From assembly GCA_964623185.1 (NCBI GenBank), contig CAZUTD010000001.1, forward strand, positions 1 through 47,986: a stretch of DNA of 47,986 nucleotides, written 5' to 3'. Under the pieces are notes generated by a model. That model ran no database searches, was not told where the DNA came from, and saw nothing but the letters and a program-made list of their open reading frames with translations. Below, piece by piece: positions 16,201 to 35,359 of this stretch. Origin of the DNA: an uncultured Clostridiaceae bacterium (lineage in GTDB: Bacteria > Bacillota > Clostridia > Peptostreptococcales > Natronincolaceae). Both the position numbers and the translations under genes were made by a program. How positions within the stretch are numbered: position 1 is the first letter of the stretch; each line of letters starts with the position of its first letter.

Positions 16201-19200
16201 ACTTCTGGTAATAGCCAATTGAAAAGCCCTGTCTATAGCACTGCTGTCACCATATTTTTTAACAAGGGAAATTACCTTTTCCTTCGTTTTTTCAATCCCT
16301 ATTGTAAAATAGACAATTACTGATTGTCCGGGCGATACTTTCATTGTCTTTTTCAAGCTCATAATTGGATCCAATACAATTCCCACACTTCCGCCTAAGG
16401 GTTTTGTTAGGGCAACCGCATTACTAATATCCCTGCCCCTACCAATAAAAGCCTCCCTATTGCTTTCATATTGCAATCCACCCATCGTTTCACCCTCAAC
16501 AGCCACCCTATGAAAAATCCATTTAGCTTCCTTGCCATTTTCCCTGGATCTTCTGGAAGCGATAAGGGCATTTTCCTCTGGCAAGACCTCAGTCCTTACA
16601 AAAAGATTGCTAAAAGCAGGATGGGCTAAATCTGCATTTTGATGAGTGAGCACTATTTCAAAATAACTAGTAACTTCTATATTTGCTAATTCCTCCCCAT
16701 GATTAGTCAATCTTATCTTTCTGATTTCCACATTATCTTCAGGCGATACAACAATTTCTGTGTGTGTATCAATATCCTCATCCTTGCGAAAAAACTCCGC
16801 CTTATCCTGCGAAAAATTAACCCTATAGCTATCTGCTTGCTGATAAAAAGGTGCTACCCCGGTTGACCATATCCTGTTTTTATTAAGATGGTTAATAAAG
16901 ATATAAATCCCGTCTTTGCCTGTTATTGCATCTTGTCGCCATCTGCTAATTTGAATATCCCGGATTTTACTATAACCGGTTCCCCAATTAGTTAGCATGA
17001 GCGAGTAGTTTCCATTTGATAAAAGATGACATTGAGCTAGGGGTCCCTCCCATCCACCATATGTTCTTACCACTTTTTCAGTTTCAAACTTTTCCTTTGC
17101 CTTTCCCGACGAACATATCCCTTCCTTATATTGTTTTGTAATAATTATTCTTGTAGGGATTCTTTCTTGTAACAAGGTTTCACCTGCCCGTATTACTGGG
17201 TCCTTGTGAAAACGTTTTTGCATAATATTTTTATTGAAAAAATTGTTCAGGGAAACAAAAATCATCCCCTGATGATGAGCCATGAAGCTTTTCACAATTT
17301 CAAACTTTTCCTCGCTAACCATAGCCCTTGGCATATAATCAATAGCCTCATAAAGCCCATATTGTCCCTCTGCACCTGTTTGAATGAGGGCTAGGATATT
17401 ATCCATTGCATCCCTAGGCCTAAAAGGTAGGGCTAAAAATGTGGAATAGGCCGATATGACCAAATCCTTTGATAGGCCCCTTTTCAGTCCTAAGTCTGGA
17501 ATACCAAAGGCTTTATACTGATAATTCAATGCCATGTCAAAAGAATAGTAGCCAGATTCAGAAATTCCCCATGGAATATTTTTGTTTTGACAGTATGTTT
17601 TCTGTGCTTTTATCGTGGTGGAATAAGTTTCATCCATAAGCCCATTATCATAATTTTTCATTATTAAGTAGGGCATAAAATATTCAAACATTGTACCTGT
17701 CCAGGATACAAGGCTCCTGCTACCGTCTATAAGGGTCATAGTCCTCCCTAATTTAAACCAATGTTTTTGAGGAACTTCCCTTCTAGCTATGGCTATATAA
17801 CTAGCTGTTCTTGCCTCAGAGGCTAGTAAATCATAATAAGAGTTAGTAAGCCTCTCTTCATCCATATTATAACCGATAGAGAATAGGTGTCTTTTAGGAT
17901 CATATAGGTGGATAAATTCCGTAGCCTCCACAATATCATCCATTGACTTAATTACCTTATTTATTTTACCTATTAATCCATCAATATTATTAATTTTCTG
18001 TAATAATTCCTTTTCCAGGTCCTCGTTACCTGCTTGTCTCAATTCCCCTAATATTTCTTTATAAATTATTTTTAACTCTGATAAAGATTTATCCTCTAGG
18101 TCAAGCTGATACTTATCTATTATGATGGGTTTTGTAATAAAAAAACCTTCTACTTCCCTGCAAATAATATCTGCCATATCATAAAACCTACGTTCCCATC
18201 CGCAATAGGCATCAAGATCTTTTTGTCTATTTTTAATATGGTGACTGATGTCCATTAATTGATCCACTATGGATTTTTCCTGGCATAGGCACCCATATAA
18301 ATCATCCATGATTATTCCATCATTATCCTCCAATAATATAAGGGTATCCCTTAGACCCATTAGAATTTCCTTTCCAATCAAGGGTCTCTTTAAATATTCC
18401 TTTAAACCCTCCCTAGCTGTAATAATATAGCTAATAAAATTCCCACTATCCACAGTTGAAATATAATATGGCCTTAGGATTTCTAATGTAAGGGTATCAT
18501 ACCAATTAAACAAATGCCCCTTCCATTTTTCCATCTTTCCTATAGTTGTAATTGTTTTTTCAATTCTTTTTACCATTTCACTTGTTGATAAATAGCCAAA
18601 ATCTCTTGCCGATAAAACCGATATGATATAGATTCCAATATTGGTTGGAGAGGTTCTTTGGGCAAGTAGGTCCTTGGGTATAAGCTGATAATTATCAGGG
18701 GGCAAATTATTACTTTCATCCCCAACAAAATCTTCATAATAAGCCCAAGTTTTTCTTCCAATCTTACGGAGCAGCTCTAGTTCATATTTTTGCAGTTTAT
18801 GGTCCCCTTTCCTTGTTTCCTTGCTTATATTGAAAGCAACAAAAGGACCCATACCCCATAAGAATGCAATGGGTATTGTATAGAAAAAATTATAAGGTTT
18901 CAAAGTAAATGTTGAAATTAGTAAAATTGCGGTAATGATAAAACTGCTTTGCATCCTAATGGCAAAACTCTTAAAATCATCCGTTAGATTTCTTTCTACA
19001 TCAGCAGCCGTTGTCCATTCCAAAAGATTGTCTTTTGATATAAGGATACGATATAGGGTTCTCAAAATAGCATCTGCCATCATGTAGGCCTCATAGGGCA
19101 GAAATATGAAATCTAATACTACCCTGTAAAATGCAGCCTTGACCTCTGCCACCAGGTCTCCTTTGACCCTATCATTTTGTCTCATGTAATACCTATCTTT

Positions 19201-21711
19201 TAAATAATATAGCAAATTAATAAGCAGGGGGAATCCCATGATTATTATTCCCAGCCCTAACCAGAAAATCGCCTGACCTGGAAACACCGTTAAGGCAAAA
19301 ATAAACAATAAAAGCAGGGATATTGGCACTAGGCTCCGCCGCATATTATCTAAAATATGCCATCGTGCTAAAATTGGTAAAGGATTGTTTCTGCTTGGAA
19401 ACAACCATCTTATTAATTGCCAATCCCCCCTTACCCATCTATGAAGCCTAAGCATATAGGCGCTATATTTAGACGGATAATCGTCTATTAGTTCGAAATC
19501 CTCGGCTAATCCCGTTCTAAGATAACTTCCTTCTAATAAATCATGACTTAAGACCCTGTTTTCTGGTATTGCATTCTTTAAAAGCCTATTAAAAAGCTCC
19601 ACATCATAAATTCCCTTGCCCGTAAAAATACCCCTGCCAAATAAATCTTGATAAATGTCTGAGTTAGCTATAGTATACGAGTCAACCCCGCCCCTACCAG
19701 CAAAGGTTCTGGTGAAAAACGACCTATTTGCACTTTCTATGTTAACCCCGATTCTGGGTTGTATTAATCCATACCCTTCAATTACCACACCTTTCTTCTC
19801 ATCTATAATTGGCCTATTTAAGGGATGGGAAGCAATTCCAATTAATTTTTTCGCTGTATCCATAGGCAATTGGGTGTCGGCATCTATAGTTAAAATATAT
19901 TTTACGAATTTTAATTTTGTAATATCCCCTGAGAGAATGGAATAGGATGTTGATTCCTCGCCTAAAATTAACTGATTTAGCTCAACCAAGGCACCCCTTT
20001 TTCTTTCCCAACCCAGCCATTTATTTTGTTTTTGGCATAATTTCCTCTCCCTATGAAAATAATAGAAAATTTCCTTTCCATATTTCCTGTTTAAATTTTT
20101 TACCCCTTCCATTACTATATTGACAATTTCATTGTCTTCCGGCATTTCCTTGGTGTTAGCATCCTTAAAATCTCCTGCTAAGGCAAAATATAGGTTTTCT
20201 TCCAAATTGGCAAGATAAAAAACCTCTAATTGCCCCAAAATCTCCTTACCCCTTTGTCCGTCGGGAAGCAAAACAGGTACTACTACTAGGCTGCTTACCT
20301 CCTCAGGAATACCATTCCTGTACTCAATCCTGGGCAGAAAGCTTGGGGGAAATAAGTTTGTTAACAATGAATTAGTCAAGCTAACTGCCAAATCACTGGC
20401 AGAAATTAAAACAAGCAAACTAATTAAAGCCAATATTATCCCACTTGTTTCATTATGGAAACTTACTCCATAGGAAAGAGATAGCCAGAAAATAAGTATT
20501 GTAAATAGGGTAATGGGGATGAAATATATGGCTAAGGATTGTTTCTGAAGGAAATCCCTCTTATCAGGGTGATCTAAGGCCTCAAAAAGTTCTTTTCTAC
20601 CCTTATCAACCAGATAATATCCCACATGGCATTTTCTTTCATCCTCCTTCTTATCTTTTGCTAGCTGGCTTTGTTCAATAGCTTTTCTAGCCACTCTTGT
20701 TTCCGCTTCTTTTAATTTACGACCTATCTTCTCAACATGATTCCGATAATAATCCCTAGAATCAAAATCCAATTGGGAGTAGATATGGCCAGGATCCTTG
20801 TTTAAAATTTCCTCCACAATACTGAGACTTTCAAAAATATCATTCCAATCCAGGCTTGCTACCTTATTTAAACTTGTTATAGAATTTCCTATAGATATTT
20901 TTGCCTTTGCTTGGGTTTGATGCTCCTCCTCAACCAAGTCCCCAATTGTTGTATTATAATCTCTTAATTTTTTCTGCAAATAATTCAAAACTACTTCTGC
21001 CTCAATTTCATTCCTTTTCAATACCTTCAACAAATGTTCCACATAGGTAGAATTTGCCCTGCCATCTAATTCTATATTTGCTTTTATAGCTAACAAAATT
21101 TCCTCTTCTGGTAATTCCGCTGCCTTTTCAGCTTTTTCCCTTTCGCAATAAGAATAATATATCTTCTCACAAATTCTCCGGATATTTTCGATTAATGCTG
21201 TCCGAATCATCAGTGAAAGTGCCCATATTTCAGCTATTGTCAAGACTCTTTGGCATTGGTACGCTTTTACATAACTAATTAACAAATCCTCGTCTAGATT
21301 CCCATCAGTATGGGCAACAAATTCTAGGGCCACCCCATAAATTCTAGGATACCCCCTAAGAACACCAGTATTTAAGGTATTTAATCTTAGAAATTTCTCC
21401 TTTAACAAATTTTGTCTTACCTCTTTGGCCTGTTCCTCTACCTTGTAGAAGTTGTCTAATAACCATTCGGATGCTGGACATAGGTGTCCTTTATGGTTTA
21501 TAGCATCATGAAAATTTGCATATACCAGGGTAATAATTTTAAAATTTTGATCAATTCTTTTCAAAAGTTGACGCAAGGAAAAACTATCGGAAAATACAGT
21601 ATGATTTTTAGCAATTTCCCTGGCATGATGAACTAGTTCCTCAGAAGTTAGTAAGAGATTTTTTAAATCCATTCCTTGTTGTTTCCCATTTCTGCCCTTG
21701 TTAAGAAACAT
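13225..21711 (-). CDS. Cyclic beta-1,2-glucan synthase-like giant protein (Cgs/ChvB/NdvB architecture: GT84-like glycosyltransferase plus GH94 phosphorylase-like C-terminus)
   Basis: ORF 13225..21744 starts at a TTG. The ATG at 21711 lies 10 nt after AGGAGG and is preferred (2,828 aa). Motifs: IDADTQLP (aa 619-626), SHDLLEG, RLHRWVRGDWQ. TM clusters lie at about aa 403-465 and 805-975. C-terminal GH94-like segments are RFSDDLLWLP, GSGDWNDGMN and ENGGQYTHAA. Confidence 0.85.
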   Translation of the reverse strand: MFLNKGRNGKQQGMDLKNLLLTSEELVHHAREIAKNHTVFSDSFSLRQLLKRIDQNFKIITLVYANFHDAINHKGHLCPASEWLLDNFYKVEEQAKEVRQNLLKEKFLRLNTLNTGVLRGYPRIYGVALEFVAHTDGNLDEDLLISYVKAYQCQRVLTIAEIWALSLMIRTALIENIRRICEKIYYSYCEREKAEKAAELPEEEILLAIKANIELDGRANSTYVEHLLKVLKRNEIEAEVVLNYLQKKLRDYNTTIGDLVEEEHQTQAKAKISIGNSITSLNKVASLDWNDIFESLSIVEEILNKDPGHIYSQLDFDSRDYYRNHVEKIGRKLKEAETRVARKAIEQSQLAKDKKEDERKCHVGYYLVDKGRKELFEALDHPDKRDFLQKQSLAIYFIPITLFTILIFWLSLSYGVSFHNETSGIILALISLLVLISASDLAVSLTNSLLTNLFPPSFLPRIEYRNGIPEEVSSLVVVPVLLPDGQRGKEILGQLEVFYLANLEENLYFALAGDFKDANTKEMPEDNEIVNIVMEGVKNLNRKYGKEIFYYFHRERKLCQKQNKWLGWERKRGALVELNQLILGEESTSYSILSGDITKLKFVKYILTIDADTQLPMDTAKKLIGIASHPLNRPIIDEKKGVVIEGYGLIQPRIGVNIESANRSFFTRTFAGRGGVDSYTIANSDIYQDLFGRGIFTGKGIYDVELFNRLLKNAIPENRVLSHDLLEGSYLRTGLAEDFELIDDYPSKYSAYMLRLHRWVRGDWQLIRWLFPSRNNPLPILARWHILDNMRRSLVPISLLLLFIFALTVFPGQAIFWLGLGIIIMGFPLLINLLYYLKDRYYMRQNDRVKGDLVAEVKAAFYRVVLDFIFLPYEAYMMADAILRTLYRILISKDNLLEWTTAADVERNLTDDFKSFAIRMQSSFIITAILLISTFTLKPYNFFYTIPIAFLWGMGPFVAFNISKETRKGDHKLQKYELELLRKIGRKTWAYYEDFVGDESNNLPPDNYQLIPKDLLAQRTSPTNIGIYIISVLSARDFGYLSTSEMVKRIEKTITTIGKMEKWKGHLFNWYDTLTLEILRPYYISTVDSGNFISYIITAREGLKEYLKRPLIGKEILMGLRDTLILLEDNDGIIMDDLYGCLCQEKSIVDQLMDISHHIKNRQKDLDAYCGWERRFYDMADIICREVEGFFITKPIIIDKYQLDLEDKSLSELKIIYKEILGELRQAGNEDLEKELLQKINNIDGLIGKINKVIKSMDDIVEATEFIHLYDPKRHLFSIGYNMDEERLTNSYYDLLASEARTASYIAIARREVPQKHWFKLGRTMTLIDGSRSLVSWTGTMFEYFMPYLIMKNYDNGLMDETYSTTIKAQKTYCQNKNIPWGISESGYYSFDMALNYQYKAFGIPDLGLKRGLSKDLVISAYSTFLALPFRPRDAMDNILALIQTGAEGQYGLYEAIDYMPRAMVSEEKFEIVKSFMAHHQGMIFVSLNNFFNKNIMQKRFHKDPVIRAGETLLQERIPTRIIITKQYKEGICSSGKAKEKFETEKVVRTYGGWEGPLAQCHLLSNGNYSLMLTNWGTGYSKIRDIQISRWRQDAITGKDGIYIFINHLNKNRIWSTGVAPFYQQADSYRVNFSQDKAEFFRKDEDIDTHTEIVVSPEDNVEIRKIRLTNHGEELANIEVTSYFEIVLTHQNADLAHPAFSNLFVRTEVLPEENALIASRRSRENGKEAKWIFHRVAVEGETMGGLQYESNREAFIGRGRDISNAVALTKPLGGSVGIVLDPIMSLKKTMKVSPGQSVIVYFTIGIEKTKEKVISLVKKYGDSSAIDRAFQLAITRSQVEINYLDIKPSELKLYQDMIAQIIYLNPLRRKYEDILKANNKSQSGLWAYGISGDLPIVLISIKNTEDIGVVKQFIKAHEYWRLRGLSVDLLILNEDASNYFQPLHHLIQDVVSSGQGKHIMDQPGGIFIKNVSNMPLEDKNLLYTVARLVVRAEEGFLSKQIEMKEEDLFEDKIFDKAGKQYSIKEDVLELEYDNGYGGFSKDGKEYIIQLKDDISTPAPWINVVANKEFGFIISERGSSFTWAENSRENRLTPWSNDYVGDPSGEIIYIRDEDTGETWSPTGQPIRSKATYTIGHGLGYSRFLHKGNGIDQQLTVYVAKEDSIKINLLKLKNPGKEKRNLSLIYFIRPVMGISDEITQQYIVTDLDKQGRGILIRNPYNADFKGRIGFVSTSEKIHSFTCDRREFVGIQGNMEKPAGLKREKFSNSFGAGYDPCVALQVNLEIQGQEEKELVFLLGQGQNFDQVDKMISYYREMDNCTNALNEIRDYWLGLVATIQVETPDLSMNLMLNQWLIYQSICCRIWARSAFYQSGGAYGYRDQLQDAMNMVYPSPEITREQILLNCAHQFVEGDVQHWWHPGAGDKGIRTRFSDDLLWLPYAVVEYLEITEDYSILEEEVGFLEEEPLREDEDERYGIPRISQEKASVYEHCLRSIERGLKFGQHGIPLMGSGDWNDGMNTVGNKGKGESVWLGWFMYSILMDFAKLCRKMGEEDRANRYVNHARGIGQAIEKNAWDGGWYIRAFFDDGSPLGSASNTECKIDSLAQSWSIISQGGNKERSIKAMQAVEEYLIKKNEGLILLFTPPFDKGDQNPGYIKGYVPGVRENGGQYTHAATWVIKAFSMLGDGDKAWELFNLINPINHSRTPLECATYKLEPYVMAADVYAVNPHIGRGGWSWYTGVSGWMYRVGIKDILGLKKKGDKLIIDPCIPKDWKEYKVSYRYLSTLYNITVKNPDGVNNMVKKIILDDKPILGKYIPLIDDKKDHKVEVIM

Positions 21712-21751
21712 ATGTATTTTTCCTCCTTGTAGTAAAAAAGTCAAAACAAAA

Positions 21752-24235
21752 TTATTTCTGACTTTTTAATAATTTTTTGATCTTTTCCTTGTAAAATACC
21801 GATAACTCCTCTGCATATTCCTCAGAGAAACCTTCAGTGTAGATATTGAACAAAGGTTTTGCACTATCCGGCAGGATTAAGGTCCAACCCCTTTTATCTT
21901 TGATTTTAACACCTTCGAACAATTCTATATCTGTGGGTAAATATTCTTGTGCAAGCTGTTGGATAATCCGGCCCTTATCCTGCCACTCACAGGATATCTT
22001 ATCCTTTATAAAATAAAATTTTGGTATCTCCTTAAGCAGGTCCTCTAGCTTTATACTATTTCTAGTGAGAAAATCCACTATCATACCCAGACCCCATATA
22101 GCATGATAAGTCAAGATATATTGTGATAAACCTTTTTGTTTACCTTCTTCAACCATGGTCATACCATTCATAACACTTGCTGGACTAGATTTTACCCGTA
22201 TTATTTCAACCCCATAAGCTTGGGCAATTTTTTCGATACCGCTGGGTGCATTATAGGCTAATACAAGTTTTCCCTTATAGCCCTCTTTTAATAAAAGCAT
22301 AATCGTTAAGATATCAAACTTTTCATCTTTGATAATATCCCCATTTTGAGTAATTAAAGCCATCTCTTCCCCATTTTCATTAATTATTACACCAAAATCT
22401 GCCGCCTTTTCCCCCGTTTTTTGGGCTATAATTTCCAAATAATCCTTCATGGGAATTTCAGTAAGACTATCATGTATTATCTCTACATTACACCCAATCC
22501 TCTTAAGAAATTGTCCACCCAATTCCTGTATTAAGCTTGATTTTGAACTAATTATAATTAAGGGGGACTTCCTCTTTATTGCCGGAATATCCATTAGAAA
22601 ATCCATCCCATTATTTATATAAAACTCTTGGAAGTTCTCTATATTGAGGCTGGATTGGATGTCCTCCGCCTTACACCGTTTAAATTCTTCCCTATTAAAC
22701 AGATTTTCTATTTCCCTTTCTGCTGACCGTTGGATATTAACCCCCTTTTCATCTGCAAACTCGATATGGACCAAATTCCTATCCATCTTGTCCATTCTTA
22801 TATGTATTCCACCACTGCCATTAAAATGTTCAATTGCAAAACGATTAACCGGCATGACTGTTTTTCCGATATCAATTATCCCAGAACCAGAAGATCTCAT
22901 CCCCACTACCAAAGCGTTCTTAATAATCTTGCTAGCATTTGAAGCATCCGAACTAACTATTATGGTAGGTTTACCCTTGAGTGTGGAAACAAATGCTGCA
23001 CCCAATTTAGATGCAAATTCAGGACTGACATCAATATTCATTTCGCCAGAAACACCCTTAAAACCAAAAATATTTTTACATGCCTTTGTTCCCCAAACCA
23101 GGTTTTCATTGACAATAGTTTTTTCCTCTATCCACTTTTCCGGCCAGATTTTAATATTGGGCTTTATGATAACGCCCTCATCTAATCTGCTGTCATCCCC
23201 GATTACTGCATTTTCATAAATTTCTACATCCTTGCTTATTTTTACATTCTTACAAATTACTCCACCACGGCAATCTGCATTTTGTCCCACAACTACATTA
23301 TTCCAAATAACTGACCTTTTTAAAGACACCCCTTTTCCTATACTGCAACCGTCCCCTATCACCGTATAAGCTTCTATTTTACTTCCCCCACGAATTATAC
23401 AGTCCTCCCCAATATATACCGGTGGTTGAAAACTAACATTTCTGTCAATTTGTGTTCCATTTCCAACCCATACTCCTTTCTCTATCTCGTGACCCGATAA
23501 TTGAAAATCTACTTTACGGTCTAATAAATCAAAATGAGTTTGGACATAGGAGTCTAGAGCACCTACATCGCACCAATAATCATTAGTAATATAACCATAC
23601 ATTGCTACCCCATCTGCTAATAATTTTGGAAAGAGATCCTTGCTAAAGTCAAAGTTTTCTCCCCGTTTAAAATAATCCAAAACTTCTGGTTCCAAAACAT
23701 AGATACCGGTATTTATCGTATTGCTAAAGACCTCACCCCAACTAGGTTTTTCCAAAAATCTTCTTATATTACCATCCTTATTAATAATAACAACCCCATA
23801 TTCTACGGGATAAGCTTCATTTTTTAAAACAAGCGTAGCCTTAGAACCCTTACTTTTATGAAAATCTACTGCTTTATCTATGTCTATATCTGTAATGGCA
23901 TCTCCGCTCAATACAATAAAAGTTTTTTCTATAAAGTCCTCGGCATTTTTAACACTACCACCCGTACCCAGGGGAATATCCTCCTCAAAATATTTTATAT
24001 TTACACCCCACTTTTCACCCTGACCAAAATAATCGATGATTTTGTTTGGAAGATGGGCAATTGTAACCCCAATATCGCTTATTTTATGTCTTTTTAGCAA
24101 TTCTATAGTATATTCCATCGTGGGTTTATTAAGTATAGGCACCATAGGTTTGGGAATACAACAAGTAAGGGGCTTTAATCTCGTTCCTTTTCCTCCTGCC
24201 ATAATAATTGCTTTTATAACAATCCCTCCATTCAT
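21752..24235 (-). CDS. Sugar-1-phosphate nucleotidyltransferase (with left-handed beta-helix) fused to a PGM/PMM-like domain that has degenerate catalytic loops
   Basis: 827 aa. The N-terminus MAGGKGTRLKPLT..PKPMVPI and the FLEKPS motif indicate an NTP-transferase. Hexapeptide repeats span about aa 250-360. Residues 388-810 align by eye to the PGM/PMM fold (ADFGVIINENGEEMALITQNGDII against the AlgC-type ADLGIAFDGDGDRVGVVTNTGTII). It lies 40 nt upstream of cgs on the same strand. Confidence 0.8.
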   Translation of the reverse strand: MNGGIVIKAIIMAGGKGTRLKPLTCCIPKPMVPILNKPTMEYTIELLKRHKISDIGVTIAHLPNKIIDYFGQGEKWGVNIKYFEEDIPLGTGGSVKNAEDFIEKTFIVLSGDAITDIDIDKAVDFHKSKGSKATLVLKNEAYPVEYGVVIINKDGNIRRFLEKPSWGEVFSNTINTGIYVLEPEVLDYFKRGENFDFSKDLFPKLLADGVAMYGYITNDYWCDVGALDSYVQTHFDLLDRKVDFQLSGHEIEKGVWVGNGTQIDRNVSFQPPVYIGEDCIIRGGSKIEAYTVIGDGCSIGKGVSLKRSVIWNNVVVGQNADCRGGVICKNVKISKDVEIYENAVIGDDSRLDEGVIIKPNIKIWPEKWIEEKTIVNENLVWGTKACKNIFGFKGVSGEMNIDVSPEFASKLGAAFVSTLKGKPTIIVSSDASNASKIIKNALVVGMRSSGSGIIDIGKTVMPVNRFAIEHFNGSGGIHIRMDKMDRNLVHIEFADEKGVNIQRSAEREIENLFNREEFKRCKAEDIQSSLNIENFQEFYINNGMDFLMDIPAIKRKSPLIIISSKSSLIQELGGQFLKRIGCNVEIIHDSLTEIPMKDYLEIIAQKTGEKAADFGVIINENGEEMALITQNGDIIKDEKFDILTIMLLLKEGYKGKLVLAYNAPSGIEKIAQAYGVEIIRVKSSPASVMNGMTMVEEGKQKGLSQYILTYHAIWGLGMIVDFLTRNSIKLEDLLKEIPKFYFIKDKISCEWQDKGRIIQQLAQEYLPTDIELFEGVKIKDKRGWTLILPDSAKPLFNIYTEGFSEEYAEELSVFYKEKIKKLLKSQK

Positions 24236-24254
24236 CCTACTTTTGCATCAATCT

Positions 24255-24260
24255 TTATCA
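24255..24260. other. Novel join point of the tandem duplication
   Basis: The join reads caatctttAT|caagttc. The AT at 24257..24258 is shared by both parental boundaries (1426..1427 and 47088..47089). Confidence 0.95.
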
Positions 24261-24302
24261 AGTTCAATATAAAATGTAATATTTAGTTATATTCTTTATT
24301 CC

Positions 24303-24331
24303 ATAATATATCAGCAGCCATATACTGTCAA
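24303..24331 (-). promoter_or_regulatory. Duplicated copy of the hydF-leader promoter, now facing the unit-1 nucleotidyltransferase-cgs operon
   Basis: Same TTGACA-17-TATTAT sequence as 1472..1500. Downstream on the minus strand come about 40 nt of hydF leader, then the junction, then 21 nt, then the ATG at 24235. Confidence 0.55.
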
Positions 24332-24365
24332 TATCTTTTCCGTAAATTCGTTAAAAACTTAACTC

Positions 24366-25013
24366 CTAATCTTCTACCCCCCTCATTTTACATTTAAGAT
24401 TTCCGCATTTTTCACATGTATGACGCTTGTAGCTTTTTTTCGAGTAATTAGTTGTCGCATACAAGAATCCCATCGATTTCAAGGGTTGGAATACAAATTT
24501 GTCATTGAGATTTATGCCCAACTTCACCAATTCCAACCTTTCCCATAAAACCCCTTGGTAATGAAATGGAATTCCTTCATCCCCGGGTATTATCTTATTA
24601 CCCAAATATATGCCTAACTCACGCATTTCTTTAAATATTTTTTGACAAAGTTCTTCCCCCATACTAAATAGTAAATCATTGGCCATAATATCTAAAACCA
24701 GAGCCTGCAAATAATGTCCCTGGTTAAATAATTCCTCACATTTTGTCCCTATCTTCCCTCCCAAACTTATAAAACTATATACCACCACACTAGAATCATT
24801 TAGTAAATTTATTTTTAACTCTTCCTGCTTATTTTCAAATTTCCATACCCCGATTGGCTCATTCAGCTTCTCTATAATGGGCAATAACTTGTCAAATAAA
24901 TGATTGACCTTTTCATAAATACTGGTTTCTTTGGCACAATCCATTGCGGATAATACCTTGTCCCTATCAATATCAAGCAAAAATTCTTTTTCTATTCTTA
25001 TCTCTTTCCCCAT
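24366..25013 (-). CDS. MetH activation-domain-like protein with C-terminal Cys cluster (copy 2)
   Basis: Identical translation to 1535..2197 at offset +22,831. Confidence 0.45.
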   Translation of the reverse strand: MGKEIRIEKEFLLDIDRDKVLSAMDCAKETSIYEKVNHLFDKLLPIIEKLNEPIGVWKFENKQEELKINLLNDSSVVVYSFISLGGKIGTKCEELFNQGHYLQALVLDIMANDLLFSMGEELCQKIFKEMRELGIYLGNKIIPGDEGIPFHYQGVLWERLELVKLGINLNDKFVFQPLKSMGFLYATTNYSKKSYKRHTCEKCGNLKCKMRGVED

Positions 25014-25054
25014 ATGTTTTTCTCCCACCCATATCTTATCTGTTGCTTGGACTC

Positions 25055-25083
25055 ATTATAACATTTAACTCCAATATTAAAAA
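25055..25083 (-). promoter_or_regulatory. Putative extended -10 promoter (copy 2 of 2224..2252)
   Basis: Lies inside the duplicated unit at offset +22,831. Confidence 0.4.
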
Positions 25084-25126
25084 CAGGCTCCCACTATTAA
25101 AGGACAACCTGTTTTCTGACATTTTG

Positions 25127-25546
25127 TTATTTTAATTTTTTAGCCTCTTCTATTAATAAAGCATCTTCCTGATTTTGAGCTTTAGGTTCTTCTAGATAAT
25201 GGGGTATTTTCTTGCCATTACCATCAACTGTTACAAAGGTAATAAAGCCATCCACAACAACTTTTTCTTCCCCTTCCCTCGATACAGCAGCGTAGGCAGT
25301 TATACTTGTAGTCCCAGTTAAAACCACCTTGGATGCAACAGCCAGGATATCCCCCTTATTTAAAGGTTCTCTAAATCGCATTCCGTGAATTTTTACACAG
25401 ACTATACTTTCAGAATTCCCATATGTAGCTGCGGCAGCAACAAAACATGCCTCTGTAAACCATTCAGCCATTCTACCGGCAAACAGTGTACCGTGGTGGT
25501 TTAAATCCTCTCCCTTAATAAGATGTGCTAATTTAAAAGTCTTCAA
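25127..25546 (-). CDS. Acyl-CoA thioesterase, hotdog fold (copy 2)
   Basis: Identical translation to 2296..2715. Confidence 0.75.
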   Translation of the reverse strand: MKTFKLAHLIKGEDLNHHGTLFAGRMAEWFTEACFVAAAATYGNSESIVCVKIHGMRFREPLNKGDILAVASKVVLTGTTSITAYAAVSREGEEKVVVDGFITFVTVDGNGKKIPHYLEEPKAQNQEDALLIEEAKKLK

Positions 25547-25590
25547 CTTACTTCCTCCTTATGTAATTTATCATTTTGCATATGTAATAC

Positions 25591-25620
25591 ATTATACAAG
25601 CTTAATATAGATTATTGCAA
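25591..25620 (-). promoter_or_regulatory. SigA-type promoter TTGCAA-18-TATAAT (copy 2 of 2760..2789)
   Basis: This intergenic region was compared base by base with copy 1 and is identical. Confidence 0.55.
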
Positions 25621-25792
25621 GTTATGACATGTATTTTGATAAAACTTTTTACTAAATCCCATTTCGTGAATAAAGCCTAATAATCGCTGCCAATACTATA
25701 TACAATATGATATATTCCCCTTAATAGCGATAATTAAACATTTGCCAAAGGGTACAATGTCTAAGTTTGCATATTATGACGAATTGCTTCCC

Positions 25793-25821
25793 TGTACCCA
25801 AACCCAAATTTGTGTTATAAT
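25793..25821 (+). promoter_or_regulatory. Putative extended -10 promoter (copy 2 of 2962..2990)
   Basis: TGTTATAAT at 25813..25821. Identical to copy 1. Confidence 0.45.
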
Positions 25822-25882
25822 TCTTTTATTCCATCTTTTTTATGTTTACGAAAATTAGCTAGAGTTTGGGGGTTTTGCTTAT

Positions 25883-26428
25883 ATGAGTAAGGTTGAAAAT
25901 AAATATTCTTATCCTTCCCTGGTAAAAATATATAAAATATCTATGATTTCTTTATCCCTTGCTATTGTTTTTATATCTATATGGGATTTAGCTTTCAGTA
26001 TTAATGAAAGCACCATTACCATAATTGCTAGACTTGACTGGATTATATGGAGTGTATTTATTCTCGACTTAATTATTAATTTAATAATAGTGGAAGATAA
26101 AAAAAGGCATATAAAAATCAGCTTAATCGAAATAGCAGTAGTGACTCCATTTGCAGTTTTTTTAAAACTTCCTGTTTATCTAAGGTCATCCAAGTTAATC
26201 CAAAAAACGGGTGTCCTTGCAAATCCTGTGGTAGTTACACCTGGCAAAACATCTCAAGAGGTGATTAATAAAATCAATTTATTGTTATCACAAAAATTTA
26301 TTATACGGTCTTTTGCTTTTATTATGAAACCAAATGTTATCAGAATCTCAAAATTTATTAACCTTTCTGGAAGTTATTTTAGAAAAACAAAGAATTCAAA
26401 AACAGATGAAGATAAAAATAATTCTTAA
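25883..26428 (+). CDS. Small voltage-sensor-like membrane protein (copy 2)
   Basis: Identical translation to 3052..3597. Confidence 0.35.
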   Translation: MSKVENKYSYPSLVKIYKISMISLSLAIVFISIWDLAFSINESTITIIARLDWIIWSVFILDLIINLIIVEDKKRHIKISLIEIAVVTPFAVFLKLPVYLRSSKLIQKTGVLANPVVVTPGKTSQEVINKINLLLSQKFIIRSFAFIMKPNVIRISKFINLSGSYFRKTKNSKTDEDKNNS

Positions 26429-26435
26429 ATCAAAT

Positions 26436-26481
26436 AAATCCACCCTTAAAATATATGAAGGTGGATTTAAATTTGATTTTT
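26436..26481. terminator. Bidirectional intrinsic terminator (copy 2 of 3605..3650)
   Basis: Same hairpin, AAATCCACC pairing with GGTGGATTT. Confidence 0.6.
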
Positions 26482-29400
26482 TATTCTTCTGTTACCGCTT
26501 TCTTTTGTCCCCTCAACCTTGCCTTTAGCTTATATGAAAAATCATCAATAATTGTGTACACAACAGGAATTACAACTAGGGTTAAAAGGGTTGATAGAAT
26601 TAATCCCGAAATAACAACCGTAGCCATAGGGGCTTGCACTTCTGCTCCCTCACCTATTCCAATAGCCAGGGGTACTAAGCCCAAGATAGTAGTTAAGGTG
26701 GTCATGAGTATAGGCCTTAATCTAACAGGGCCAGCCCTTACTACAGCCTCATCCCTATCCATGCCAGATTTTCTTAGGTAGTTAATATAATCCACCAATA
26801 CAATCCCGTTGTTTACTACGATACCAGCCAAAATTATAACCCCTATCATTGATGGTACATTTATAGTTCTCCTAGTAATAAAGAGGCCGAAAAGTCCGCC
26901 TGAAAATGCTAAAGGTACTGATAAAATAATAGTAAACGGATGAACCAGAGATTCAAATTGTGCAGCCATAACCATGTAAATAAGAACTATTGCCAATAAA
27001 AGTGCCAAGAAAAGGTCGTAAATAGCATCATTTAATTCTTCATTTTGTCCGCCGAATTCATAAGAGTATCCTTGAGGCATATTATATGCCTTTAATGACT
27101 TATCTATATCATCCGCTATACCCCTTAAATCCCTGCCGGATATTTGACCTGAAACAGTTACAATCCTTTGCTGTCCTTCACGAATAATTTGGATAGGACC
27201 CCTTTCTACATGAATACTGGCAATTTCATTTAGAGGAATTGTCCCACCCACCATGGTTGGAATCCCAATTTGCTCCAAATTGGTTAGACTCTCGGTTACA
27301 GAGTCATCACCCCTGACGACAACATCTATTTCATTACCTTCATATTTATACCTTGTAGCCGTTACACCTGAAGCAACACTTCTTATGGTATTGGCAATCT
27401 GTGCCGTGGTTAACCCATAGCTTGCTGCCTGGTATTTATTAACAAGGACCTGAACCTCCGGAGTGGCTTCGCTAAAACTCGTGCCTACTTCCCTAGTCCC
27501 CTCTACTTTTTCAATTAATTCTTTGAAATCTGAAGCGATTTCCTCTAAGGTTTCGAGTTCATCTCCCCTGATACCTATGCTAATGGGGTCTCCCCCTAAT
27601 CCCATCATCATCATGGAGGATTCAACAACTGTAATTTCAGTACCAGGAATATCCCTAACAAGTTTTCTAATTTCATCAGAAATAGCCTTTGCATTTCTCT
27701 TTCTTTGTGATAAGGGTTTAAGACCTATATTTATATAGCCTTTACTACTTTCGCTACCACCCATCGACATCATTCCGCCAGACCCAATGGATGAAAATAC
27801 AATGTCTGCCTCCTCAATTCCAGAAATCTTTTCCTCTACCTCTAATATAATGTCATTGGTTTCATGTAGTTCAGAGCCCGCCGGCAATGAAACATTTACC
27901 GTTATCTGTCCCTCATCGGTTGACGGGAAAAACTCTGCACCTACGAAGAAGGCAGATACCATACTGCCCAAAAACACTAGTCCAGCTATAAGCAGAACTC
28001 TTTTTCTATAATTTAAACTCCAAGCTAAAATTTCTCTATATTTATTATCGATGCTGGTAAGTCCCTTATCAAAAGCATCATATATAAGATCAATTTTTCT
28101 TTTTTTCCTGTCCTCTTCCTGGTCACCTGTATAGCTTACTTTTAGGATTTTAGAAGATAACATGGGAATCAGTGTTATGGCCACTACCAAGGATGCAACC
28201 AGGGATAGGGTAACTGTCATTGCCAGTTCTTTAAAGATGGTAGAAACCATACCCCCAACAAAGACTATGGGTATAAAAACAGCAATTGTTGTAAGTGTAG
28301 ATGCTGTTACCGCCATGGACACTTCTGATGCCCCAAGAATTGCAGCCTCTATCCTAGGATGCCCCTCGGACCTTAAGCGATAAATATTTTCCAAAACAAC
28401 AATAGCATTGTCAACCAGCATACCCACTCCCAGCGCCAACCCACCCAAAGTCATTAGGTTCAAGGTTATATCACTGAAATACAATAAAATAAAAGTTGCT
28501 ATTATTGAGATTGGAATCGAAGTCCCAATAATTAAAGTAGTCCTGATATTCCTTAGGAACAAATATAAAATTCCAATCGCTAATAGGGCGCCAAAAATTG
28601 CATTTTTGAATACATTTTCAATTGCGTGGTTTATAAAAGTAGATTGATCAAAGACTGTCTCTATTTCAATATCTGGAAAATCACTTTTTAATTTGACTAT
28701 CTCCTTATTAACTAAATTTGCCACCTGTACTGTGTTAACGCCCGATTGTTTTTGTATGGAGATATTTATGCTTTCCTTATCATTAACCCTAAAAATACTG
28801 TTGATTTCCTTGGGCGCCATTTTCACCTCGGCAATATCCTTAAGTTGTATAATTCCACCCGTAGCCAATGGGATAGGCATTTCCTGTATTTCCTCTACGG
28901 ATTTAAATTCTCCCATTGTTCTGATAGCCAGTTCTTGGATACCCCTATCCACTGTTCCTCCTGGTAAGTTTAGGTTTGCGGCACCAATTAATTGAGATAA
29001 TTGATTGATATCAAGACCATGGTTTTCTAGTAAAGATTCATTTACCTTTATCTGGACCTGGTTGGTATATCCTCCGAATATATCGGCAGAGGCAACCCCT
29101 TCTATCCTCTCTAATCTTGACTGAATTGTGTCCTCAGCCAAGGTTTGCAGGGAAGCTAAATCTCCCCCATGTGTTAGGGATAACTGTATGATAGGGGTAG
29201 AGTTGGGGTCGATTTTCAAAACCATAGGTTCAGATGCATCTTCTGGTAGCATCCCCTTTATTAAATCAACTTTTTCTCTCATTTCCAAAGTTGCAAAATC
29301 CATATCTGTTCCAAAGTTAAATAAAGCAATAACAATAGAATTCCCCTGGGCCGATATGGAATTAATCGTGTCAATATTGCCAACAGTTGCTATAGCACCC

Positions 29401-29603
29401 TCTAGGGGGCGGGTTATAAGATTTTCCATCTCATAAGGTCCAACCCCTGAATAAGAGGTGCTTACGATAGCTACAGGCACTTCTATCTTTGGCAGTAAAT
29501 CCAGGGGTAATCGGGTCAAAGAAATCGTCCCCAAGAGCACAATGACTAGCATTAGCATTGCAATAGTTACGGGACGCTCAACTGCTAATTTTGATAAGTT
29601 CAT
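26481..29603 (-). CDS. RND efflux transporter, AcrB family (copy 2)
   Basis: Identical translation to 3650..6772. Confidence 0.9.
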   Translation of the reverse strand: MNLSKLAVERPVTIAMLMLVIVLLGTISLTRLPLDLLPKIEVPVAIVSTSYSGVGPYEMENLITRPLEGAIATVGNIDTINSISAQGNSIVIALFNFGTDMDFATLEMREKVDLIKGMLPEDASEPMVLKIDPNSTPIIQLSLTHGGDLASLQTLAEDTIQSRLERIEGVASADIFGGYTNQVQIKVNESLLENHGLDINQLSQLIGAANLNLPGGTVDRGIQELAIRTMGEFKSVEEIQEMPIPLATGGIIQLKDIAEVKMAPKEINSIFRVNDKESINISIQKQSGVNTVQVANLVNKEIVKLKSDFPDIEIETVFDQSTFINHAIENVFKNAIFGALLAIGILYLFLRNIRTTLIIGTSIPISIIATFILLYFSDITLNLMTLGGLALGVGMLVDNAIVVLENIYRLRSEGHPRIEAAILGASEVSMAVTASTLTTIAVFIPIVFVGGMVSTIFKELAMTVTLSLVASLVVAITLIPMLSSKILKVSYTGDQEEDRKKRKIDLIYDAFDKGLTSIDNKYREILAWSLNYRKRVLLIAGLVFLGSMVSAFFVGAEFFPSTDEGQITVNVSLPAGSELHETNDIILEVEEKISGIEEADIVFSSIGSGGMMSMGGSESSKGYINIGLKPLSQRKRNAKAISDEIRKLVRDIPGTEITVVESSMMMMGLGGDPISIGIRGDELETLEEIASDFKELIEKVEGTREVGTSFSEATPEVQVLVNKYQAASYGLTTAQIANTIRSVASGVTATRYKYEGNEIDVVVRGDDSVTESLTNLEQIGIPTMVGGTIPLNEIASIHVERGPIQIIREGQQRIVTVSGQISGRDLRGIADDIDKSLKAYNMPQGYSYEFGGQNEELNDAIYDLFLALLLAIVLIYMVMAAQFESLVHPFTIILSVPLAFSGGLFGLFITRRTINVPSMIGVIILAGIVVNNGIVLVDYINYLRKSGMDRDEAVVRAGPVRLRPILMTTLTTILGLVPLAIGIGEGAEVQAPMATVVISGLILSTLLTLVVIPVVYTIIDDFSYKLKARLRGQKKAVTEE

Positions 29604-29605
29604 TA

Positions 29606-30814
29606 TTATTCACCCCTTACTACTTTCACCTGTTGTCCATTGGTTATATAATGTTGTCCCTTGATAATTACAATATCCCCTTCCTTTAAACCCTTCTCAA
29701 CTTCAACATATAGACCAGTATCCAATCCTAGAACTATTTCTCTTTGGATTGCTTTATCATCTTCCACAATATAAACAAAGGTTTTCCCCTCATTTTCAAT
29801 AATGCTACCCCTCTGAACAGCCAATATACCCTCACGGCTTTCTATATCTAACTCAATACTCCCACTCATACCGGGTTTTATCCTATGTTCTTCATTGGGT
29901 AGATAGACTTTTATTAAATATAATTGGTTTCTTTGATCAGGTGTTGGACTAATGTAGTCAATATATCCCTCAATTTCACTTTGACCATAAGCCGCTTCAA
30001 TAGTTACCCTTACCTTTTGCCCCTTATACAGGCTATTTACAATCTTTTCGGAGATGTTTGCCTGTAGAAAAATCTCGTCCATATCGACAACCGTTGCCGC
30101 TGGCTGGGCATTAGAAACTAGTTCTCCTTCGATTACATTCAAATTATTGACTATCCCAGAGATTGGTGCCTTAACCATGGTGTTATCAAAATTGCTTTCC
30201 ACCTGTCCATAGCTGCTTTTTGCCTGTCTTAATTGATCCAAGGCCTGTTCATGGGCTATTTCAGCTTGTAAGACCTGCATTTCTACAGTTTCCAAAGGTT
30301 TTAATGATGCTGCTAATTCCGCCTGCTCCAACTGTGATTTTGATACTGCCCCTGCTTCATAAAGAGCTTGTGTTCTTTCCAAGTTTATTAATGCATTATC
30401 TATCTTTTCTTTTACCGAATCATATTGAATTTGGGCGGTTTTAACTCCATTTTCCGCTTGTTGAACAGCCTTTGCTGCTAAATCCAGACCCGCACCAGCC
30501 TGCTCAAGCGCCCTATTGACATCTTTTTGATCCACAATAAATAAGACATCATCTTTTTCAACTTCATCACCAAGTTTTACACTGATTTTTGAAACGCTAC
30601 CAGGTACCTGAGGAATAACCATAACTTCCTCATTTGCAAACACCTTACCATTTAAAGTAATAAGCTTGGCAATGTTATCCTTCTTCAGAGTCTTTATTTC
30701 CACCGGCACATAGTTTTCCTCTTGGTTTACCGTTTCCTGTGAATTTTGACTGCATCCAACTGTTAAAACAATTATAAATAGTAATAATAGTGCAAATACC
30801 TTTTTTCTACCCAT
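29606..30814 (-). CDS. RND efflux adaptor lipoprotein (copy 2)
   Basis: Identical translation to 6775..7983. Confidence 0.88.
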   Translation of the reverse strand: MGRKKVFALLLLFIIVLTVGCSQNSQETVNQEENYVPVEIKTLKKDNIAKLITLNGKVFANEEVMVIPQVPGSVSKISVKLGDEVEKDDVLFIVDQKDVNRALEQAGAGLDLAAKAVQQAENGVKTAQIQYDSVKEKIDNALINLERTQALYEAGAVSKSQLEQAELAASLKPLETVEMQVLQAEIAHEQALDQLRQAKSSYGQVESNFDNTMVKAPISGIVNNLNVIEGELVSNAQPAATVVDMDEIFLQANISEKIVNSLYKGQKVRVTIEAAYGQSEIEGYIDYISPTPDQRNQLYLIKVYLPNEEHRIKPGMSGSIELDIESREGILAVQRGSIIENEGKTFVYIVEDDKAIQREIVLGLDTGLYVEVEKGLKEGDIVIIKGQHYITNGQQVKVVRGE

Positions 30815-30860
30815 CCCTCTTCCTCCTAGAATTCACTTTTCAGGTCAAAAAATAAACTTC

Positions 30861-31331
30861 TTACTCCTGGCATAGGTCTACTAATTCTCCGCCCGTTATT
30901 TCCAAAAGTTCTTCTACAGTCACAGGTACCGCCGTATTAGCAGTACCGGCAGCAGCATAAACAAGATCAAACCTTTCCATGCTTTTGTCTATGAGAATTC
31001 TTATAGGATTCTTTAAGGCAAAGGGGCAAACCCCACCCGGATGAAATCCTGTAATTTCCATACATTCTTCAGGTTTTGCAAGTTTAGGCTTAGCCCCTAA
31101 TATCTTTTTTAAGGGTCCATTTTTTACCCTTACATCACCACTGGTAACTACCAGGGCTTTTTCCTCCTTAGCTATAAACAAAATTGATTTTGCGATTTGT
31201 CCTACGGTTACGCCCAACTGGTCTGCAGCCATTTGTGCAGTTTTAGTTGTTCCATCTTCAAATTCAATAACCTCTAATTCTATTGGTAAAGTTTCTAAAT
31301 AATCCTTTACCCTTGCTAATGTAGATTCCAT
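30861..31331 (-). CDS. ybaK: YbaK/ProX-family aminoacyl-tRNA deacylase (copy 2)
   Basis: Identical translation to 8030..8500. Confidence 0.75.
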   Translation of the reverse strand: MESTLARVKDYLETLPIELEVIEFEDGTTKTAQMAADQLGVTVGQIAKSILFIAKEEKALVVTSGDVRVKNGPLKKILGAKPKLAKPEECMEITGFHPGGVCPFALKNPIRILIDKSMERFDLVYAAAGTANTAVPVTVEELLEITGGELVDLCQE

Positions 31332-31501
31332 AACACTTACATCTCCTTCTGATATTACTTTTTATTGTGACCACTATATTTGAATAAGGACTTCACCTGT
31401 CAGTTAACATTCTTGGTGGGTAATTCCTACTTCCCCTGCAAATAAACACTTAACATGCAAAGAAGTCCCATTAAAATTGCGGACATAATATTTCTATGAC
31501 C

Positions 31502-31531
31502 ATATTATCATAGAATATGGCCCAATAGCAA
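31502..31531 (-). promoter_or_regulatory. Putative promoter with palindrome (copy 2 of 8671..8700)
   Basis: This intergenic region was compared base by base with copy 1 and is identical. Confidence 0.4.
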
Positions 31532-31556
31532 TATATCAGTTTTTATCAAAAGTATT

Positions 31557-31605
31557 AGATAAAAAATAACACCTTCTCGATACTTATATATCTTAAAAGT
31601 GTTAT
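31557..31605 (-). terminator. Putative terminator after the GAF-like gene (copy 2 of 8726..8774)
   Basis: Identical sequence to copy 1. Confidence 0.4.
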
Positions 31606-31633
31606 ATATTTACAATATCATATTATTATTATT

Positions 31634-33496
31634 CTAAAAATTGTAGTCTAGAACATCTTTTAGACTATTGATGCTAGGTATTTTCTTAAAGTCTAATAAA
31701 TCCAAATCATCATAACAAATGATAAAGAGATAATTGTCGATTAAATAATGTTCATATTTTTCATACATGGACAGGTCAACATCAGCAAAGGGATGGGTTT
31801 CTACAAGCCTGTAATAAATGTTGATATTAACATTGAATTTATCCTTTTCCTGTATTTTTTTATTAATTGATTCATAAAATAATTGCCTCTTATCAGGTAT
31901 GTACCTTTGCTTATGTTCTTCCAAAACATTCATATGGTAAATGGTCGGACTTATATTTTTTGTAATGGTATCTATTAGGAGTATTTCTTCTTCTTGTAAA
32001 TTGTTTGGAGTTTTTAGTACAAGTAAGTAGGCAAAGGGTGATTTCCACCCTTCTAAATTAAACTTTTCCGTAATAATTGGTGAAATTACTAATCCGGTGG
32101 AATCATAAAACAAATCAAGCAAATCTTTTTCTAGATAGTCCTGGTTGTTTTCTGCCGCAAAATTATAAATCATATCCCCGTCATAGGATTCTTCCCATTT
32201 TTCATTTATATTTAGTATTTCTCCAACCCCTATATCATCAATGCTATGTTTAATTCTATATTGTTTTTCATTCTCTTTAAAAGCTATAAAGGCCTTTTCA
32301 ATATCAAAGGATATATTCAAGGTCTTAAGCGTTATATCACATAACTCCTCAATTGATATACATTCATTTATATTTTCTACTAACTGATTAAAGCTGGTTA
32401 AAACATCATATTTTGCTTCTATAATTTGCTTCTGCCTCTGTGTTTCTTCAAATAAGATTGCATTTTCTAAGGCTATATATGTAAAGGAAGCCAATGACTC
32501 AATTAGTTCAAATATTGCAATATCGTAATCCTCCTGATTAACAGGTTCAGCCAAGGTTACTAACCCTAAAAGTTCGTCCTTTACGAGTAAAACAACATAT
32601 TGTGCTCCTAATGAATAAAACTCCTCCCAATTAACAAATAATTCTTTTATCAAATCAATATCCTCTTCCAGGCTTAACATTACCTTCCTATGTGAGAACT
32701 CCGCCTGGGGCCTAATTTCCAAATCTGCTAGATGGGTTGAAAAATCATCTATATTCCTGTAGCCCAAAATTCTTAATTTATTAGATACCTTATCTACAAT
32801 GCCAAAGGATGTAATTTTGCTACTTGTCATTTCACTAAAAATATCCACTGCCATACTTATCAAATTATCTAATTCTAATTCTGACAATAATGATCTGGCA
32901 CTTTGGTTTATAGCAAATAAATTAAATATTTTTTGATCCAATTGTTTGTTTCTAGTCTTTAAGTCTGTAAAGTTTCTGTTATTTTCAAGTGCATTATTAA
33001 ATAACCTCATCAAGCATACTGCCATAGTGTGGTCATCTTCATTAAAATCCCCCACGGCCTTCCCATCAGAGATAATAAAGCCAAACAATAAATCATCTAT
33101 AATTAATGGAATAACAAGGTTCATGTCAAATTTATCAAGGACTTCAATGGGAAAGTAATTTTCAAAGCGGTTTAATATTATACTCCCATGAAGTGTGGCA
33201 ATTTTTTGAATCTTAGTCTTGTTTTTTATACTATAATTTTGGATATTATATAATCTTTTACTTTTTAAAATAAATTCGTCGCCATCTATAATAAAAAGGG
33301 CTGATGCCTTTAGTGTTAAAATTTCGTTAGCAAATTCAAAAGCGTATTTGCTTAACTGCTCAGGAGTAAATCTTTGGGTGAAAAAATCTACTGCTTTGAT
33401 CAAAGCATCATACCTGTACATCCTATTTGTAACATACAATCCATCCAATATATTCTCTTCCCTTCTACGAAAAATGCAGTTCGTTGTCCATTGCAA
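31634..33496 (-). CDS. Hypothetical protein with tandem GAF-like modules (copy 2)
   Basis: Identical translation to 8803..10665. Confidence 0.5.
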   Translation of the reverse strand: MQWTTNCIFRRREENILDGLYVTNRMYRYDALIKAVDFFTQRFTPEQLSKYAFEFANEILTLKASALFIIDGDEFILKSKRLYNIQNYSIKNKTKIQKIATLHGSIILNRFENYFPIEVLDKFDMNLVIPLIIDDLLFGFIISDGKAVGDFNEDDHTMAVCLMRLFNNALENNRNFTDLKTRNKQLDQKIFNLFAINQSARSLLSELELDNLISMAVDIFSEMTSSKITSFGIVDKVSNKLRILGYRNIDDFSTHLADLEIRPQAEFSHRKVMLSLEEDIDLIKELFVNWEEFYSLGAQYVVLLVKDELLGLVTLAEPVNQEDYDIAIFELIESLASFTYIALENAILFEETQRQKQIIEAKYDVLTSFNQLVENINECISIEELCDITLKTLNISFDIEKAFIAFKENEKQYRIKHSIDDIGVGEILNINEKWEESYDGDMIYNFAAENNQDYLEKDLLDLFYDSTGLVISPIITEKFNLEGWKSPFAYLLVLKTPNNLQEEEILLIDTITKNISPTIYHMNVLEEHKQRYIPDKRQLFYESINKKIQEKDKFNVNINIYYRLVETHPFADVDLSMYEKYEHYLIDNYLFIICYDDLDLLDFKKIPSINSLKDVLDYNF

Positions 33497-35144: not shown

Positions 35145-35359
35145 TATTTTGTAAATTGTTTAGTAACTTTACTATTCGACATTATATTTATTATCCCTTC
35201 ATATTTTTGGAATTTTCAATGTTATATTTCAAATTTTGTGTCCTTTTTTCGTATTTACTGCCCTTTTAAATAAACCCATTAATTGTAATGCCTTTCTTTG
35301 TTTTTTATTTGCACAAATTGTATTATAATGTAGATTAATGAGAGGTATTTTTATTATGG

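Follow-up and report, generated by a model that had tools for sequence, protein, structure and literature searches.

A window of 47,986 nt, analysed over its whole length, carries two copies of a two-gene operon for a sugar-phosphate nucleotidyltransferase/phosphohexomutase and a cyclic beta-1,2-glucan synthase, and raises the question whether a duplication has placed one of these copies behind the promoter of the hydF leader. An initial annotation had proposed that it has, and that the operon copy concerned has lost its native promoter and leader and would henceforth follow the expression signals of hydrogenase maturation. Several points have to be settled: how the repeat is built, whether its join exists in the organism, which signals were gained and lost at the breakpoints, and what kind of regulation the hydF leader itself may exert.

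Organisation of the duplicated locus

Comparison of the window with itself by BLAST revealed that positions 1426-24258 recur at 24257-47089 over 22,833 nt with 100% identity, no mismatches and no gaps, so that the two operon copies are indeed, as had been reported, identical in sequence, and so is everything else in the repeated unit. As the two matching segments overlap by 2 nt, the unit amounts to 22,831 bp, and the same spacing of 22,831 was obtained by a separate repeat search of the window. The layout is flank A (1-1425), unit, unit and flank B (47090-47986), and both flanks (1425 and 897 nt) are unique within the window according to the self-BLAST. Taken together, the self-comparison and the breakpoint sequences reveal a direct repeat, arranged head to tail between unique flanks, with a single novel junction, and comparison of the two breakpoints yielded no direct or inverted repeat common to both beyond a 2-nt AT. 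Such an arrangement is best explained by a direct tandem duplication of 22,831 bp, in which the end of the unit was joined illegitimately to its start at the 2-nt microhomology. Since the copies are perfectly identical, the event would be very young.

The relevant genes of the locus all lie on the minus strand (Table 1), and in single-copy contigs of the same species hydG and hydE come after hydF. Each unit comprises 10 genes, a complete RND efflux pair (AcrB/HlyD) among them. The gene of the 827-aa protein is followed after 43 nt by that of the 2827-aa protein. Alignments of the latter with the structures 8rf0 and 8rf9 of cyclic beta-1,2-glucan synthase run from one end to the other (1914 bits, residues 22-2777) and make it a predicted full-length homolog of Cgs/NdvB. 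The 827-aa protein would be the enzyme that supplies NDP-sugar, no sugar specificity being assignable since every NCBIfam match falls below its curated cut-off. Exact-protein look-ups of the 827-aa, 816-aa and 2827-aa products returned no record. The nearest named relatives of HydF belong to Acetivibrio saccincola and Herbivorax (73-74%), those of the 827-aa protein to Natronincola, Clostridium aceticum and Alkaliphilus (62-64%), and a contig scan of the GTDB representative genomes, which do not include the source species, gave Alkaliphilus pronyensis as the nearest, at 53%.

Table 1. Location of the features discussed in the text; positions refer to the window unless a locus of a relative is named.
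Feature	Position	Strand	Basis or remark
hydF, 402 aa, untouched by the duplication	37..1245	-	Pfam HydF_dimer, HydF_tetramer and GTPase domains
Conserved hydF leader RNA, ~170 nt: P1, P2, terminator, alternative antiterminator	1264..1433	-	Covariance model, pair counts
Tandem duplication unit, copy 1, 22,831 bp	1426..24256	none	Self-BLAST identity to 24257-47087
Original hydF-leader promoter, TTGACA-17-TATTAT, 11/12, native context	1472..1500	-	Promoter scan
Cyclic beta-1,2-glucan synthase gene (cgs), copy 1, 2827 aa	13225..21708	-	Pfam GH94 and Glycoamylase
827-aa sugar-phosphate nucleotidyltransferase/phosphohexomutase gene, copy 1, now downstream of the captured promoter	21752..24235	-	Pfam NTP_transferase, Hexapep, PGM_PMM_I
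Native 5' UTR kept by copy 1, 21 nt	24236..24256	-	Identical to 47067-47087
Novel join, unit end to unit start, 2-nt AT microhomology	24255..24258	none	Breakpoint sequences
hydF leader remnant, ~40 nt	24257..24296	-	Non-conserved spacer, then the start of helix P1 (7-8 nt, ACUUGAU)
Tandem duplication unit, copy 2	24257..47087	none	Self-BLAST; match continues 2 nt to 47089 (AT microhomology)
Captured copy of the hydF-leader promoter, TTGACA-17-TATTAT	24303..24331	-	Identical to 1472-1500
827-aa gene, copy 2, native upstream region kept	44583..47066	-	ORF position
Conserved upstream block TTGTTTTATGTATAGAAATAnnnnATTCTCACAAAATAA, ~39 nt	47086..47124	-	Probable proximal promoter or operator
Distal sigma-70-like site TTGACA-17-TATACT, 11/12, TG extension	47317..47345	-	Promoter search
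215/220-aa ORF, 4HBT thioesterase, AcrB/HlyD RND efflux pair, tRNA_edit-domain protein	within each unit	-	Other unit genes
GAF protein, FapA-like protein	within each unit	-	Further unit genes
yajQ (DUF520)	right end of window	+	Gene annotation
Leader RNA in relatives	L108:1309-1469, L109:1404-1573, L110:342-511, L022:1-161		Covariance model
Leader RNA in relatives	L021:2822-2981, L024:2821-2982, L025:2823-2982		Covariance model

Existence of the join

Through other proteins of the locus, the species was found in five further, independent metagenome assemblies, at least partly from biogas fermenters, which are 96.4-100% identical to the window and in which the locus, from yajQ via the operon to hydF-hydG-hydE, is contiguous and single-copy. 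None of the five contains the join; each contig matches one side only and breaks at 24257/24258. These assemblies are what an assembly artefact would predict, that is, a chimeric read or molecule, or a mis-resolved graph loop, in a genome which is single-copy and in which no cell carries the fusion. The window is moreover one entire NCBI contig and its unique flanks are very short, as would fit a chimeric long read or a loop walked once on minority reads, while perfect identity of the copies is also the outcome of a graph edge traversed twice. Because the flanks (1.4 and 0.9 kb) are so short, the contig covers only 25 kb of real locus.

Several observations speak against such an artefact. The breakpoints share just 2 nt, hence a collapse of k-mers or overlaps could not make the join, which must have been present in the reads; the 2-nt overlap thus excludes k-mer collapse as the source but leaves a chimeric read possible. 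Neither a concatemer nor a repeat collapse is in agreement with the contig, where the repeat stops short of the ends and no breakpoint repeat of k-mer length is found. Compared with Illumina-type contigs of the same species, the window exhibits 97 mismatches over 16.8 kb and not a single gap, and since the differences are substitutions only, the contig appears to be a high-accuracy assembly rather than one of raw noisy long reads; assembled chimeras are uncommon from accurate reads. In addition, it is improbable that, in a metagenome, a random chimera would join two fragments of one 25-kb locus in matching orientation. On balance, an artefact is regarded as unlikely, albeit a serious contender, and the physical reality of the join as likely, if well short of certain.

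Divergence between strains of the species is uneven along the unit. The part with cgs and the 827-aa gene (~13200-24250) is 96.4-97.4% identical among same-species strains and contains 3 small indels, and the rest of the unit, compared over 1-13000, is less divergent (99.1-99.7% identity, no indels).

The same end-to-start junction sequence would also be expected if a copy of the 22.8-kb unit had been excised as a circle. However, the contig ties the join to both chromosomal flanks, the breakpoints lack terminal repeats, and domain searches, which left four ORFs without an NCBIfam match and three of these also without a Pfam match, gave no gene of a mobile element such as an integrase or transposase; a circle in place of a chromosomal tandem array is therefore considered highly improbable. 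A circular concatemer is ruled out by the unique flanks. An origin from a mobile element was likewise rejected, as neither breakpoint repeats nor, among the ORFs that had a match in those searches, a recombinase or transposase was found. The tRNA scan gave no tRNA or tmRNA gene in the window and hence no signature of an integration site.

Signals gained and lost at the breakpoints

The -35 and -10 hexamers of the hydF-leader promoter are spaced by 17 nt, within the 16-18 nt of sigma-A promoters. Sites matching the sigma-70 consensus in at least 11 of 12 positions occur three times in the 25,155-bp single-copy sequence versus 1.4 expected, and the consensus match by itself is weak evidence, barely above chance. 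The site is regarded as a working promoter mainly because its position is conserved in orthologous hydF loci, which were gathered from metagenomes and from proteins found via homology search: all seven loci with upstream sequence harbour a perfect TTGACA, a spacer of 17-18 nt and TAnnAT (10-11/12), located 15-58 nt 5' of the leader RNA in surroundings that are otherwise unalignable. The minus-strand copy that the initial annotation had placed at 24303..24331 lies exactly there, and the promoter it duplicates is thus one kept in seven orthologous loci.

The join sets this promoter before a leader remnant of about 40 nt from hydF, after which come 21 nt of native UTR, the 827-aa gene and cgs. 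The -10 element ends at 24303, which predicts a transcription start near 24296. The ATG at 24235 lies 21 nt from the join (24257/24256), or 23 nt if the shared AT is counted, so that both this distance and the length of the leader remnant are as had been reported. The resulting chimeric 5' UTR of ~60 nt has a weak predicted fold (-11 kcal/mol, z = -0.7), and the terminator scan, with the interval taken in the identical copy, gave no terminator-like site between the captured promoter and the 827-aa gene. A co-oriented promoter is hence found upstream of a gene deprived of its own upstream region, with no terminator in between. For the 827-aa gene, neither the start codon nor the Shine-Dalgarno sequence is certain, and the annotated ATG has only a poor, abutting Shine-Dalgarno sequence; all candidate start codons and Shine-Dalgarno-like sequences lie 3' of the join.

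A strong GGAGGG Shine-Dalgarno sequence is located 6 nt before an ATA codon which opens the sequence (M)KAIIMAGG (window 24215-24229 and 47046-47060, minus strand), and the homologs of the 827-aa protein in Clostridium aceticum and C. formicaceticum begin with (M)KAIIMAGG. In a sister species the codon at this position is ATT, and no canonical start codon is found in frame upstream of it. The gene may thus be translated from a non-canonical AUA/AUU codon.

What copy 1 has lost can be judged from the upstream region of copy 2. When the window was aligned with three further lineages, whose 827-aa proteins are 68, 68 and 53% identical to its own, a block, TTGTTTTATGTATAGAAATAnnnnATTCTCACAAAATAA, stood out upstream of the nucleotidyltransferase-cgs operon, and its core is invariant across the four lineages. 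In the relatives it is found at L101:3831-3869, L103:1028-1066 and L001:4118-4157, and its distance to the start codon varies from ~20 nt in the window to ~35 (L103), ~85 (L001) and ~150 nt (L101). Judged by this conservation, the block is probably a proximal promoter or operator. Its pattern, GTATA ... CACAAAATA, resembles sporulation-type promoters, in which a -35 element with ATA or AC is combined with a CATA-AAT-like -10 element (PMC3789822), a likeness which is suggestive only, as types of sigma factor could not be discriminated. The block occurs once within the window; the join severs it 4 nt short of its 3' end, and it is consequently missing from copy 1.

The initial annotation had assigned native control to the sigma-70-like site at 47317..47345, ~244 nt from the ATG at 47066, and had stated that copy 1 lost this promoter together with the leader. 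The loss is plain from the breakpoint, but the assignment does not hold as it was made, for the conserved block is the one at 47124-47086; the position of the distal site is not conserved among the aligned relatives, though it is plausible as a promoter nonetheless. As read from the sequence, copy 1 keeps no native upstream signal, whichever of the two sites is the native promoter.

A second rearrangement was observed at the equivalent locus of a sister species (L102:914-1995; ERZ778607 NODE_4677), where a 539-bp tandem duplication covers the promoter region and the first ~100 codons of the nucleotidyltransferase gene. Its copies are 98.2% identical, with 10 mismatches clustered at the start of copy 2, and its join lies at a ~7-nt microhomology (CTTTTTA). 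Samples L103 and L104 are single-copy there.

The left breakpoint of the window is situated within the hydF 5' leader, past the promoter and 7-8 nt into the conserved leader RNA, and the right one 21 nt 5' of the operon start codon, at the 3' edge of the conserved upstream block. Each of them thus lies only a few nucleotides from the border of a conserved regulatory element, and the join keeps the promoter while dropping both the attenuator and the native block, an outcome that is suggestive, even if one event cannot prove selection. The fusion could nevertheless be an incidental by-product of a real duplication, namely of an amplification that is transient or confined to a minority, and that is neutral or was selected for the dosage of AcrB/HlyD, cgs or other genes. 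The unit holds ten genes with an entire efflux pair, its perfect identity bespeaks a very young event, and spontaneous duplications at microhomologies are established to be frequent and unstable (PMC6614815). Moreover, as no terminator is present between the 215-aa gene of unit 2, which lies upstream, and the join, read-through from unit 2 may also feed copy 1. An incidental fusion is accordingly held to be quite possible, though somewhat short of an even chance, and selection of the fusion, as opposed to gene dosage, is not claimed for this duplication.

The hydF leader RNA and related systems

The sequence between the promoter and hydF, of which the duplicated promoter carries only a remnant, encodes a conserved RNA of ~170 nt. 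A covariance model built from five sequences scored 163 bits in the window and 124-161 bits in 7 other distinct sequences, and the HydF proteins of the loci bearing the leader are 64-93% identical to that of the window. The element also occurs in a cultured species, Acetivibrio saccincola (GCA_002969215.1), and it is missing from one close relative (L023). About 75 further hydF loci, whose HydF proteins are 50-56% identical, gave weak matches only and were not counted as members; examples are L073 (30 bits) and L060 (28 bits), the latter lying 5' of a lyase-like gene, behind which come hydF and one more ORF. At locus L109, the gene call of HydF (433 aa, L109:1501-2802) starts inside the leader RNA, and the start has probably been mis-called because the RNA element is unannotated.

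The RNA consists of a three-part hairpin (P1), a second hairpin that is nearly invariant in sequence (P2, UUCUgaUGCYgaGGA-loop-UCCrgGGCAgaGGAG) and a terminator composed of a 13-bp stem and a U-run (1314-1262). In these three elements 98.5% of the alignment cells are paired, a share that does not exceed 62% once the partners are slid, and compensatory changes are seen in 9 pairs. An alternative antiterminator helix is formed by the 3' strand of P2 and its tail, which pair with the end of the 5' arm and the loop of the terminator; here 91.4% of the cells are paired versus at most 69% on sliding, 4 pairs show compensatory changes, and the helix contributes -13 to -18 kcal/mol in every sequence. 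A structured domain, an intrinsic terminator and a competing antiterminator are thus all present, as in leader attenuators. The terminator hairpin, which the initial annotation had described at 1262..1314 and found to be absent from the fusion, is therefore not an isolated element but part of this conserved RNA.

No credible match to the leader was found in Rfam 15, at E-values up to 10 for the sequence of the window and up to 1 for six relatives; searches at the gathering threshold gave nothing credible either, and the native leader of the operon had no credible Rfam match at this threshold or at permissive E-values. A literature search returned no description of a leader or riboswitch of hydF, hydE or hydG. 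Protein-binding leaders of the PyrR or TRAP type, both considered by eye from the GA-rich motifs, were discarded: Rfam gave no PyrR match, and the GAG triplets show no regular spacing and are not conserved. The architecture points to a transcription attenuator or riboswitch and makes the leader a candidate new element. A more specific reading, that it represents a new class of riboswitch which controls hydFGE and senses a metabolite of H-cluster assembly, for example a substrate or product of a radical-SAM enzyme, is offered tentatively and is, at present, a doubtful one; if it were true, the duplication would amount to a natural construct of a promoter minus its aptamer. An unclassified leader RNA before hydFGE that is found in a cultivable species would provide a handle on the regulation of [FeFe]-hydrogenase maturation, and in this respect the leader is a more novel and more useful outcome than the junction.

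The join (1426/1425) cuts the leader RNA after ACUUGAU, and because only 7-8 nt of P1 remain, the duplicated promoter is without any regulatory RNA. Most likely, hydF is regulated through the leader RNA that was left behind. Hence copy 1 would be expressed constitutively and would not vary along with hydrogenase maturation. The proposal that the two operon copies are under different control can accordingly be retained as a prediction, but not the proposal that copy 1 follows the signals of the hydrogenase maturases, the regulation being probably in the part that was lost. In the reading preferred here, sigma-A holoenzyme would initiate near 24296 and read into the 827-aa gene and cgs of copy 1 without attenuation, copy 2 would remain under native control, and hydF would retain its own promoter and attenuator. 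That the join is real and is also transcribed from the captured promoter is favoured, if only slightly. Provided that the join is real, the locus would represent a natural case of promoter capture in an uncultured organism, in which a duplication rewires expression at once and leaves one cyclic-glucan operon copy constitutive and the other natively controlled; no new principle would be added.

With respect to known systems, the hydF leader resembles the terminator/antiterminator leaders of Firmicutes in that a sigma-A promoter is followed by a conserved structured domain and an intrinsic terminator, with an antiterminator, backed by compensatory changes, whose formation excludes that of the terminator. 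It differs from the known leader attenuators of this group in belonging to no Rfam family and in being represented by 8 distinct sequences only; its effector may be a ligand, a protein or a tRNA.

Promoter capture at the join of a duplication is, as the initial annotation noted, a known route, and two precedents are at hand. In the long-term evolution experiment with E. coli, the Cit+ trait was actualised through promoter capture by the rnk-citT tandem duplication (PMC5918244), and in the activation of genes in E. coli, microhomology-mediated tandem duplications and deletions give rise to promoter capture (PMC6614815). The event described here shares with the latter the short direct repeats at the breakpoints and a tandem duplication that recruits a nearby bacterial promoter; those events, however, were obtained by laboratory selection with a reporter, whereas here a single event is seen in one assembly. 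With rnk-citT it shares a head-to-tail junction by which one copy of a downstream gene comes to stand behind a promoter that belongs to the opposite end of the unit (PMC5918244). There, the captured promoter activates a gene that is silent under the growth condition, and both expression and fitness were measured (PMC5918244), while the operon described here already has a control region of its own and is known, in a 22.8-kb unit of an uncultured Clostridia-like organism, from sequence only. In its predicted structure the junction is a promoter capture of the rnk-citT type, the mechanism being already known and the instance new, and unlike in rnk-citT, the captured promoter has here been parted from its own RNA attenuator.
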